From a virus (taxonomy: Duplodnaviria > Heunggongvirae > Uroviricota > Caudoviricetes): DNA of 10,910 nucleotides. The DNA is taken from the IMG/VR virus record IMGVR_UViG_2859827302_000011; one strand, written 5' to 3'. Shown here piece after piece: positions 1,140 to 2,948 of the stretch (position 1 is the stretch's first letter; the number at the start of each line of letters is the position of its first letter). The translations under genes and the position numbers were made by a program. Below the pieces are notes generated by a model that searched no databases, was not told the DNA's origin, and was given only the letters and a program-made list of their open reading frames with translations.

Positions 1140-1382
1140 TCCTCAGCGTAAAGCTTTCCTCGATATGGTGGCATGGTCAGAAGGAACGGATAACGGGCGA
1201 CAACCGACACGTAACCACGGTTATGATATTATTGTCGGTGGTGAACTCTTCACTGATTACTCCGATCACCCTCGCAAACTTGTCACGCTAAACCCCAAAC
1301 TCAAATCAACAGCTGCAGGCCGTTATCAACTTCTTTCACGCTGGTGGGATGCTTACCGCAAGCAGCTTGGGCTGAAAGACTT
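1126..1382 (+). pseudogene. R: Lambda R-type endolysin (lytic transglycosylase), 3' truncated by IS911 after about codon 86
   Basis: MQNLNPQRKAFLDMVAWSEGTDNGRQPTRNHGYDIIVGGELFTDYSDHPRKLVTLNPKLKSTAAGRYQLLSRWWDAYRKQLGLKDF closely matches the N-terminal half of lambda R as I recall it. The frame then runs into the IS911 left end (tgaagtgg... from 1383) and stops at 1398, so about 70 C-terminal residues are missing. Confidence 0.85.
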
Positions 1383-1454
1383 TGAAGTGGCACACTGAAT
1401 TTGGCCACCTGAACAGAGGTGATATGCTCACCTCAGAACAACACAGGTGCTCCA

Positions 1455-1757
1455 ATGAAAAAAAGAAATTTTAGCGCAGAGTTTAAACGCGAATCCGCTC
1501 AACTGGTTGTTGACCAGAAATACACGGTGGCAGATGCCGCCAAAGCTATGGATGTTGGCCTTTCCACAATGACAAGATGGGTCAAACAACTGCGTGATGA
1601 GCGTCAGGGCAAAACACCAAAAGCCTCTCCGATAACACCAGAACAAATCGAAATACGTAAGCTGAGGAAAAAGCTACAACGCATTGAAATGGAGAATGAA
1701 ATATTAAAAAAGGCTACCGCGCTCTTGATGTCAGACTCCCTGAACTGTTCTCGATAA
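1455..1757 (+). CDS. orfA: IS911 OrfA (helix-turn-helix / leucine-zipper regulatory protein)
   Basis: [92 protein letters not shown]... matches IS911 OrfA; the ATG at 1455 sits inside the 1419-1757 track ORF. Confidence 0.9.
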
Positions 1758-2623
1758 TCGGGAAACTCAGAGCGCATTATCCTGTGGTCACACTCTGCCA
1801 AGTGTTCGGGGTTCATCGCAGCAGCTACAGATACTGGAAAAACCGTCCTGAAAAACCAGACGGCAGACGGGCTGTATTACGCAGTCAGGTACTTGAGCTA
1901 CATGGCATCAGCCATGGTTCGGCCGGAGCAAGAAGCATCGCCACAATGGCAACCCGGAGAGGCTACCAGATGGGACGCTGGCTTGCTGGCAGGCTCATGA
2001 AAGAGCTGGGGCTGGTCAGCTGTCAGCAGCCGACTCACCGGTATAAACGTGGTGGTCATGAACATGTTGCTATCCCTAACTACCTTGAAAGGCAGTTCGC
2101 CGTGACCGAGCCAAATCAGGTGTGGTGCGGTGATGTGACCTGTATCTGGACGGGTAAGCGCTGGGCGTACCTCGCCGTTGTTCTCGACCTGTTCGCAAGA
2201 AAACCAGTGGGCTGGGCCATGTCGTTCTCGCCGGACAGCAGGCTCACCATGAAAGCGCTGGAAATGGCATGGGAAACCCGTGGTAAGCCCGGCGGGGTGA
2301 TGTTCCACAGCGATCAGGGCAGTCATTATACGAGCAGGCAGTTCCGGCAGTTATTGTGGCGATACCAGATCAGACAGAGTATGAGCCGGCGCGGAAACTG
2401 CTGGGATAACAGCCCAATGGAACGCTTCTTCAGGAGTCTGAAGAACGAATGGATGCCGGTGGTGGGTTACGTAAGCTTCAGCGAGGCAGCTCACGCCATA
2501 ACGGACTATATCGTTGGATATTACAGCGCACTAAGACCGCACGAATATAACGGTGGGTTACCCCCAAACGAATCGGAAAATCGATACTGGAAAAACTCTA
2601 ACTCGGTGGCCAGTTTTTGTTGA
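1706..2623 (+). CDS. orfB: IS911 OrfB frame (DDE transposase catalytic domain), made as an OrfAB fusion by programmed -1 frameshift at A AAA AAG (1706-1712)
   Basis: The -1 frame relative to orfA is open through 2623 and encodes an IS3-family catalytic domain (...[33 protein letters not shown]...[10 protein letters not shown]...). The slippery motif tta-aaa-aag is in the orfA frame. The GTG at 1784 used by the track is probably not the biological start. Confidence 0.85.
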
Positions 2624-2948
2624 CCACTTCAGGTCGGTCATGAGCACTAAATTAACCGGCTATGTATGGGATGGTTGCGCTGCATCAGGCATGAAGTTAT
2701 CCAGCGTGGCAATTATGGCCCGCCTGGCTGATTTCAGTAATGACGAAGGTGTGTGCTGGCCATCAATTGAAACCATTGCCCGTCAGATTGGCGCGGGGAT
2801 GAGTACCGTCAGAACGGCTATCGCACGGCTGGAAGCAGAAGGCTGGTTAACGCGTAAGGCGCGTCGCCAGGGTAACCGCAATGCGTCGAATGTTTATCAG
2901 CTTAACGTTGCGAAGCTTCAGGCAGCGGCATTTTCTCAACTGTCAGAT

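Follow-up and report, generated by a model that had tools for sequence, protein, structure and literature searches.

A stretch of 10,910 nucleotides filed as caudoviricete DNA (IMG/VR record IMGVR_UViG_2859827302_000011; this whole stretch is called the window below) contains a lambdoid prophage remnant in which a copy of the insertion sequence (IS) IS911 stands between a truncated endolysin gene (R') and an O-like replication-initiator gene. Positions, the list of open reading frames (ORFs) and the sequence of the window were read directly. Its order is IS1, holin, R', IS911, the 5' part of O, an IS66-family element, the 3' part of O, a block of early genes from PerC to antiterminator Q, and a second IS1. 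A look-up with the 90-amino-acid (aa) product that runs from the endolysin into IS911 matched four complete or near-complete chromosomes, one of which, the 4.64-Mb chromosome CP026828.1 in GenBank, is 100% identical to the entire window, with the IS911 copy at 4,260,131–4,261,379. The assembly (GCF_002950015) is labeled Shigella dysenteriae and clusters with S. boydii (PMC10501659). We propose, with a probability of roughly 0.78, that the IS911 copy at 1383–2631 is the recombinant copy at one end of a ~200-kb chromosomal inversion in this boydii-cluster Shigella chromosome.

The features of the window are listed below with position, strand and basis of the assignment; Pfam assignments come from loci L005 and L018. 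Among the locus labels used in this text, L002 and L017 are the two IS911 copies of PSSQ01.

1–753, minus strand: left IS1 copy, with InsA/InsB ORFs and an inverted repeat at 731–753
834–1139, plus strand: phage holin, short 101-aa form (PF16083, Phage_holin_3_3)
1126–1382, plus strand: endolysin 5' fragment R', codons 1–85 plus 2 nt (match to a 158-aa endolysin)
1380–1382: CTT, the 3 bp outside the left end of IS911 (sequence read)
1383–2631, plus strand: IS911 (IS3 family), 1249 bp, apparently intact (terminal repeats, ORFs, Pfam)
2632–2634: GGT, the 3 bp outside the right end of IS911 (empty site in relatives)
2640–3022, plus strand: O-like helix–turn–helix replication-initiator gene, 5' part (PF13730, HTH_36)
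3023–5463, plus strand: IS66-family element, 2441 bp (Pfam TnpB_IS66 and DDE_Tnp_IS66; empty site in L007)
5464–6030, plus strand: O-like gene, 3' part (collinear with L007 5753–6320)
6027–10463, plus strand: early/nin-type genes for PerC, Dam methyltransferase, LexA-like protein, RusA, KilA-N, DUF968 and antiterminator Q (Pfam; UTI89 annotation)
10593–10601: ATTTACTTG, half of a 9-bp IS1 target duplication (junctions of the window, L002 and L001 compared)
10602–10910, minus strand: right IS1 copy, ending at the window edge (10617–10910 identical to 1–294)

Two loci joined by IS911

The element starts with TGAAGTGGCACAC at 1383 and ends with GACCACTTCA at 2631, both ends being read directly, and has the length (~1250 bp) and the imperfect terminal inverted repeats (TGAAGTGG...CCACTTCA) of IS911. 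It contains a complete 100-aa OrfA (1455–1757), an A6G slippery site at 1706–1712 and an orfB frame that stays open to 2623, which is the −1 frameshift arrangement of orfA and orfB, together with the Pfam domains HTH_Tnp_1 and rve. Escherichia coli copies that are 98–99% identical to it are annotated as 'IS3-like element IS911 family transposase'. As a member of the IS3 family, IS911 moves by a copy-out-paste-in route, and its canonical insertions are bordered by a 3–4-bp target duplication. At the copy in the window, a 3- or 4-bp direct repeat is absent: CTT stands on the left and GGT on the right. The first-pass annotation had described an IS911 without a target duplication on the basis of these flanks, and both our reading of the flanks and the empty sites of relatives bear this out; its coordinates, its count of endolysin codons and the 8-bp spacing to the initiator start are likewise correct, and a check for a flanking repeat that might have been overlooked found none at IS911.

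On the left, the ORF that starts at 1126 comprises the first 85 codons and two further bases of a 158-aa endolysin of the GH24/lambda R type, and reads on into IS911 to 1398. R' is identical to residues 1–86 of the 158-aa endolysin of L007 (glycoside hydrolase family 24 in the UTI89 annotation), its breakpoint is common to L002, L003, L004 and L005, and the corresponding empty site in relatives reads ...GAAAGACTT/CTCTCCAAAAAGCC. On the right, the ATG of the O-like gene lies at 2640–2642, 8 bp from the IS911 end. Here the empty site (...GGGAAATAGA/GGTCGGTCATG) is the end of a gene for a 112-aa or DUF4222 protein, and it reads ...AAATAGAGGTCGGTCATG in L001, L004, L007, L009, L010, L014 and L015. 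GGT belongs to the 9 bp that separate the stop of the 112-aa gene from the start of O, inside the GAGG ribosome-binding site. Because relatives show both sites empty, as two different loci, neither flank is a decayed duplication. An internal control is provided by the IS66-family element at 3023–5463, which keeps a perfect 8-bp duplication (AAAAAAGC at 3015–3022 and 5464–5471), so that simple insertions in this DNA do retain their duplications. A truncated relative of the 112-aa protein (P0035) goes back to a frameshift in the e14-like prophage at icd and is unrelated.

Many E. coli strains carry an intact version of this prophage in normal lambdoid order: integrase, cI-cro-cII, the 112-aa or DUF4222 gene, O, PerC through Q, a 111-aa gene, holin, R, Rz and terminase. 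The holin/R' piece of the window is 100% identical to the intact prophages L007, L009, L010 and L014, and its O...Q piece is 98.4–99.5% identical to them (against L007, 99.5% for the O 5' part and 98.4% for the early genes at 6027–10463), so both pieces can derive from one prophage type. In the window, holin and R' lie upstream of O...Q, and cI, cro, cII, int, Rz and structural genes are absent. The circular permutation and the missing cI/cro/cII region noted earlier are thus confirmed by the intact order, and none of the intact relatives has holin and endolysin directly upstream of the replication gene. With modules missing, O split and R cut, the DNA does not represent a functional lambdoid prophage. 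Neither IS911 junction, nor the arrangement of the window, was found in the complete E. coli genomes searched; four E. coli matches with at least 80% coverage are copies of ISEc52 beside a lysozyme gene, at 93% identity, and are not the junction of the window.

The O-like gene carries 15-bp iterons at 2928–3017 (iteron family D2), and the IS66-family element lies directly after this array, the presumed origin. In 12 other genomes, the left flank of the IS66-family element is exchanged for another locus (a 133/151-aa ORF and PerC), and at least six copies of it occur in one 2.19-Mb contig; this element, too, is a recombination joint. Further downstream, the DUF968 gene (8702–9697) encodes 329 aa in the window and is called as 236 or 220 aa in L011, L012, L039 and L040, which suggests an internal deletion or a frameshift in those sister strains.

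Half-junctions in sister genomes and a proposed inversion

Each of the two half-junctions of the window was found with another partner in a related genome. The left one (R'...GACTT/IRL, where IRL and IRR are the left and right terminal inverted repeats of IS911) is identical in PSSQ01, CP026842, CP026872 and CP026828. Beyond the right end of IS911, these continue with TCC-ecpD' (PSSQ01), with GTT in the early region of a second prophage (CP026842), with GATC inside another IS66-family element, ISY (CP026872), and with GGT-O (CP026828). The right half-junction (IRR/GGTCGGTCATG-O), looked up with the 128-aa O fragment, occurs in only one other large genome, PSSQ01, where its left partner is a truncated IS600 (IS600'...GGTTC) lodged in a truncated integrase gene; window 1383–10910 is 99.95% identical to this IS600'/IS911/O locus. 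That PSSQ01 has IRR/GGT-O with another left partner makes the GGT junction older than the joint of the window. A look-up with the O 3' ORF identified further strains that pair IS600'/IRL with the second-prophage flank or with other flanks, and all four combinations of {R', IS600'} with {O, the '51aa...AntA' flank of the second prophage} are found across CP026828, PSSQ01, CP026842 and PSST01/CP026840. This four-combination pattern is what crossovers inside IS911 copies would produce. R'/IS911/O is present in CP026828 alone among the indexed assemblies, which marks the R'/O joint as recent. In L040, L044 and L046 (about 1245–3800), a different IS3-family element has split the IS911 that lies beside IS600', so that the IS911 ends stand 2562 bp apart.

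PSSQ01 carries both half-junctions on one replicon. In PSSQ01000001.1, the first IS911 copy (R'/IS911/ecpD') is located at 1,027,274–1,028,522 on the plus strand and the second (IS600'/IS911/O) at 1,228,571–1,229,819 on the minus strand, so that the two are inverted repeats ~200 kb apart. The DNA leaving the first copy is ecpD-ecpR-ykgM-eaeH in K-12 orientation (ascending), and the DNA arriving at the O...Q block is gcl/hyi', which ends at K-12 position 535,814. These outward flanks, ecpD' and gcl/hyi', are ~227 kb apart in K-12, consistent with an interval that is collinear with K-12. Both PSSQ01 copies have an A at column 364 of the IS911 alignment (L002 and L017), and every other copy has a T, which suggests that the two underwent gene conversion or exchanged sequence recently.

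The IS1 copies at the window edges record earlier events. The last 15 nt of the left IS1 lie just before the start of the window; its outer flank is the region upstream of folD (in L005, ...GAAGGTTAGG/, which corresponds to K-12 557,864, ascending, at 123 bp upstream of folD), and its inner flank is the holin region. The outer flank of the right copy (CATAAATTCAACGCC) maps to K-12 535,814, descending, 104 bp inside hyi, and beyond this copy hyi'-gcl is read backwards. In the window, the sequence on the Q side runs ...ATTTACTTG/IS1, the IS1 on the folD side of PSSQ01 and CP026842 is followed by ATTTACTTGTACTG, and the intact L001 reads ...ATTTACTTGTACTG... without interruption. The two halves of the ATTTACTTG duplication are therefore carried by different IS1 copies (window 10593–10601 on the Q side, L002 9166–9174 on the folD side), which shows that a single IS1 had inserted ancestrally between Q and the 111-aa gene and that IS1 copies later recombined with one another. 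The two IS1 copies form an inverted pair in PSSQ01 and a direct pair in the window. The inner flank of the left IS1 (GTAATTTTC) begins 463 bp further into the prophage than in L002 and L003, which, as far as sequence comparison goes, indicates an IS1-adjacent deletion of 463 bp at 753/754 that is specific to CP026828 and removed the 111-aa gene; the start codon of an alternative 134-aa holin form was lost with it.

The identity of window 1–294 with 10617–10910 mimics terminal redundancy, both ends lying in direct-orientation IS1. A circular or terminally redundant contig was rejected, since the 294-bp identity stems from two chromosomal IS1 copies with differing outer flanks. The pair does not form an IS1 composite transposon either: the outer flanks (AAGGTTAGG and CATAAATTC, at K-12 557,864 and 535,814 and in opposite orientation) show no 9-bp repeat.

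These observations can be arranged into a series of nested inversions. The ancestral prophage, of the lambdoid e14/HK97-like type, gained the IS66-family element in O, the IS1 between Q and holin, and the IS911 junction in the endolysin gene. One IS1 x IS1 inversion would then have flipped the block from the lysis genes to hyi, and a second would have flipped hyi...folD, giving the PSSQ01 state with its two inverted IS1 copies. In this state, the lysis block and the O...Q block would lie in opposite orientation ~200 kb apart, at folD and at hyi/gcl; the division of the 9-bp IS1 duplication between two IS1 copies shows that IS1-mediated inversions had set the two blocks apart beforehand. A single IS911 x IS911 crossover between the inverted copies, catalyzed by host homologous recombination, would next flip the interval between them and yield folD-IS1-hyp-holin-R'-IS911-O...Q-IS1-gcl (reversed), where hyp is the 111-aa gene. 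This is the order of the window, with the IS1 copies now direct, and the 463-bp deletion would subsequently have removed the 111-aa gene in CP026828. The hybrid IS911 has mismatched flanks, CTT and GGT, because each flank stays on its original IS end. On the other side of the inverted segment, the crossover predicts a reciprocal junction IS600'/IS911/ecpD' ~200 kb to the right in CP026828, near 4.46 Mb, with the sequence ...GAACGTCTGGTTC/IS911/TCCCGAGGTTCACC on the appropriate strand. This nested-inversion scheme accommodates every junction sequence and the orientation of every IS1 copy.

The earlier suggestion of a rearrangement joint rather than a simple insertion is accordingly supported, and the genome comparison narrows it to an inversion. 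The mechanism is best read as host homologous recombination in which IS911 acts as portable homology, and not as a transposase reaction, and the permutation additionally calls for the earlier IS1 inversions. Lysis and replication genes are physically joined, as had been stated, but this is not a meaningful gene fusion, because O is broken by the IS66-family insertion and the endolysin is cut. The joint has no evident function, and the prophage remnant is dead, with O split, R cut and no repressor, integrase or structural genes nearby.

Remains of the same prophage in a second Shigella group point to its former location. There (L028 8438–12324, and L033), cI-cro-cII-112aa and an 80-aa O stub lie beside IS600, a truncated integrase gene and proA. 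This group keeps int'-proA adjacent both to cI-cro-cII-112aa-O' and to holin'-R', and its immunity block is inverted relative to the integrase and to the lysis fragments. The original attachment site of the prophage was probably next to proA/thrW.

Several points weigh against the inversion. The reciprocal junction IS600'...TTC/IS911/TCC...ecpD' near 4.46 Mb of CP026828 is a prediction whose sequence was not retrieved, and this is the main gap. Collinearity of the 200-kb segment with K-12 is judged solely from where the segment ends and from how long it is. Among the nearly identical IS911 copies only two alignment columns are informative, and the two PSSQ01 copies have the same alleles, so that a chimeric pattern of single-nucleotide polymorphisms (SNPs) is not visible. 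PSSQ01 is not the literal parent, since column 364 is T in the window and A in both PSSQ01 copies. The direction from a PSSQ01-like to a CP026828-like state is inferred solely from the collinearity of R'/IS911/ecpD' with a thrW prophage. None of the four half-junctions was seen with its original partner among the genomes compared; these partners would be ...GGT/IRL after the 112-aa gene, IRR/CTTCTCTCC-'R, IRR/TTCAGCAGATT in IS600 and ...TCC/IRL in ecpD. Finally, sister strains join the same R' nucleotide to the opposite IS911 end, and events other than homologous recombination must therefore also act at the R' site. Searches of viral contigs with the two predicted reciprocal junctions and with the left junction of the window gave no match for any of the three, in a collection without this lineage, and the best 120 matches of a search for the 3' endolysin fragment on Shigella chromosomes were fragmentary metagenome proteins.

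Flipped endolysin junctions and competing explanations

Window nucleotide 1382 is joined to the left end of IS911 in the window, L002, L003 and L004. In six genomes of the second group (L027–L034 except L033), the same R' nucleotide is found on the right end of IS911 instead (...CCACTTCA/AAGTCTTTCAG); the endolysin fragment is 100% identical there and ends at the same nucleotide (the L027 copy lies at 4061–5309). CP026872 (L004 copy, 10258–11505) and CP026762, apparently close sisters, share a private IS911 SNP at column 885 and the same holin boundary, and have opposite configurations, the element being flipped with respect to R' and the halves of a GATC target being exchanged. The other flank of the flipped copy (ISY...GAGATC/) and the right flank in CP026872 (/GATCATCG) are the halves of one simple insertion, which can be reconstructed as an IS911 with a 4-bp GATC duplication in ISY orfA (L027 4057–4060 and L004 11506–11509); an uninterrupted ISY copy (L003, minus strand, about 5358) confirms the site. 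Each half of this insertion is today found in a separate genome and beside a partner of its own.

When IS copies recombine, each flank always keeps the IS end that it had, so at least one additional event at the R' nucleotide is needed. A second IS911 may have inserted in an end-targeted way, the site may be a hot spot, or IS tips may have been joined by a deletion between them. The R' junction site lies in a 7-bp near-palindrome (AAGACTT), and in inverted IS911 copies the identical 8-bp tips form short direct repeats. It is tentatively conceivable, at rather low odds, that the flipped junctions reflect a natural, recurrent reaction of IS911 at its own ends, such as an inverted end-targeted insertion, an in-situ inversion or an inter-tip deletion; we know of no description of any of these three from genome data. 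End-targeting by IS911 itself was reportedly described by Loot et al. in 2002. End-targeted insertion is documented for IS911, as cited in PMC9333248, though for IS30 it gives tandem junctions only.

One alternative to an inversion is excision and reintegration. Direct IS911 copies in R and upstream of O would recombine within one prophage and release a 10–11-kb circle (IS911-O...Q-IS1-hyp-holin-R'), which would re-enter by IS1 x IS1 recombination at a folD/IS1/hyi' junction. Two crossovers suffice; they yield the exact permuted order with a direct IS1 copy at either end, and account for the divided ATTTACTTG duplication. However, this route requires a simple IS911 insertion at GGT, and 112aa...GGT/IS911 is found in no genome; the GGT site is empty in every genome that retains the 112-aa gene. 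It also leaves unexplained why PSSQ01 pairs IRR/GGT-O with IS600' and has O...Q inverted 200 kb away, for which more events would be needed, and we regard it as unlikely. A transposase-driven intramolecular event, in which an IS911 in R, or its dimer or circle junction, attacks the GGT site and leaves a deletion or inversion product, would account for the intactness of the element and for an IRR/GGT-O junction that lacks a known partner. The flipped R' junction in sister strains reveals events beyond homologous recombination at this very site, and a second, end-targeted mode of IS911 insertion is documented (cited in PMC9333248). Against it, the IS3 family's copy-out-paste-in mode of movement gives simple insertions with duplications, which is established knowledge (see references in PMC11708052), O is naturally upstream of R, so that a one-step event would not yield the permutation observed, and IRR/GGT-O occurs in PSSQ01 with another partner and is hence older than its pairing with R'. 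We consider such an event quite improbable.

An artefact would arise if the assembly of CP026828 had been led astray within the 1.25-kb IS911 repeat and the real order were PSSQ01-like. That R'/IS911/O is seen in one assembly only, that the IS911 copies are ~99.9% identical and that related assemblies of this series contain indel errors inside IS911 would all agree with this. A 1.25-kb repeat is, however, short relative to typical long reads, and a mis-join here would have to be balanced by a second one at the partner copy, at a distance of 200 kb. The IS911 of the window is full length and free of indels, and CP026828 is a different strain from PSSQ01, as its independent 463-bp deletion and SNPs demonstrate; we judge an artefact to be very improbable. 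Next to no chance is left for a simple IS911 insertion whose duplication was later mutated away, in a phage with a natural R–O order. Nothing speaks for it beyond the bare possibility, and it is already refuted by the relatives, whose endolysin runs for 72 more codons and is followed by Rz and whose O is preceded by the 112-aa/DUF4222 gene and cII-cro-cI; the flanks are unrelated loci and not a mutated repeat. Recombination between inverted IS911 copies hence remains our preferred explanation for the joint.

Relation to known IS-mediated rearrangements

The joint at IS911 is a well-resolved instance of a known process that is ordinary for Shigella. Rather than a new phage architecture, a fusion of genes or a circular element, it is a scar of IS-driven scrambling in the genome of a host-restricted pathogen, and it has little importance beyond correct annotation. 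It does serve as a worked example of how inversions can be traced by matching orphan half-sites, each an IS end with its flank, across sister genomes. Every IS type in the remnant (IS1, IS911, the IS66-family element and IS600) has served as a recombination joint in some strain. When IS-rich genomes are scanned, the default reading of an IS that lacks a target duplication should be a recombination joint.

Compared with a canonical IS911 simple insertion, the copy in the window is alike in its terminal repeats, orfA, A6G site, orfB and length, but it lacks a duplication, and in no intact relative do the two loci that supply its flanks lie next to each other. Compared with the intact e14/HK97-like lambdoid prophages of E. 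coli (the UTI89 prophage, L001 and L007), the window draws on the same gene set. It differs from them in being permuted, in the absence of the immunity, integration, Rz and morphogenesis genes, in the splitting of O by an IS66-family element, and in its site at folD/hyi, which is not a tRNA attachment site.

Missing target duplications have been explained by identical IS copies recombining with each other or by adjacent deletion (PMC11708052). Both causes are represented in the window, by IS911 and two IS1 copies without duplications and by the 463-bp IS1-adjacent deletion. That work concerns other organisms and other ISs, whereas here the half-sites matched across sister genomes provide a table of pairings. 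IS-linked inversions are frequent in Shigella, where 103 of 114 reconstructed inversions fell on Shigella branches, and follow the rule that inverted repeats lead to inversions and direct repeats to deletions (PMC8072062). With these IS-bounded inversions, the case described here shares inverted copies of one IS, the lack of a duplication, a large flipped segment and variation between strains. There is no difference in kind; this IS911 pair, together with the permuted remnant, is particular to one assembly.

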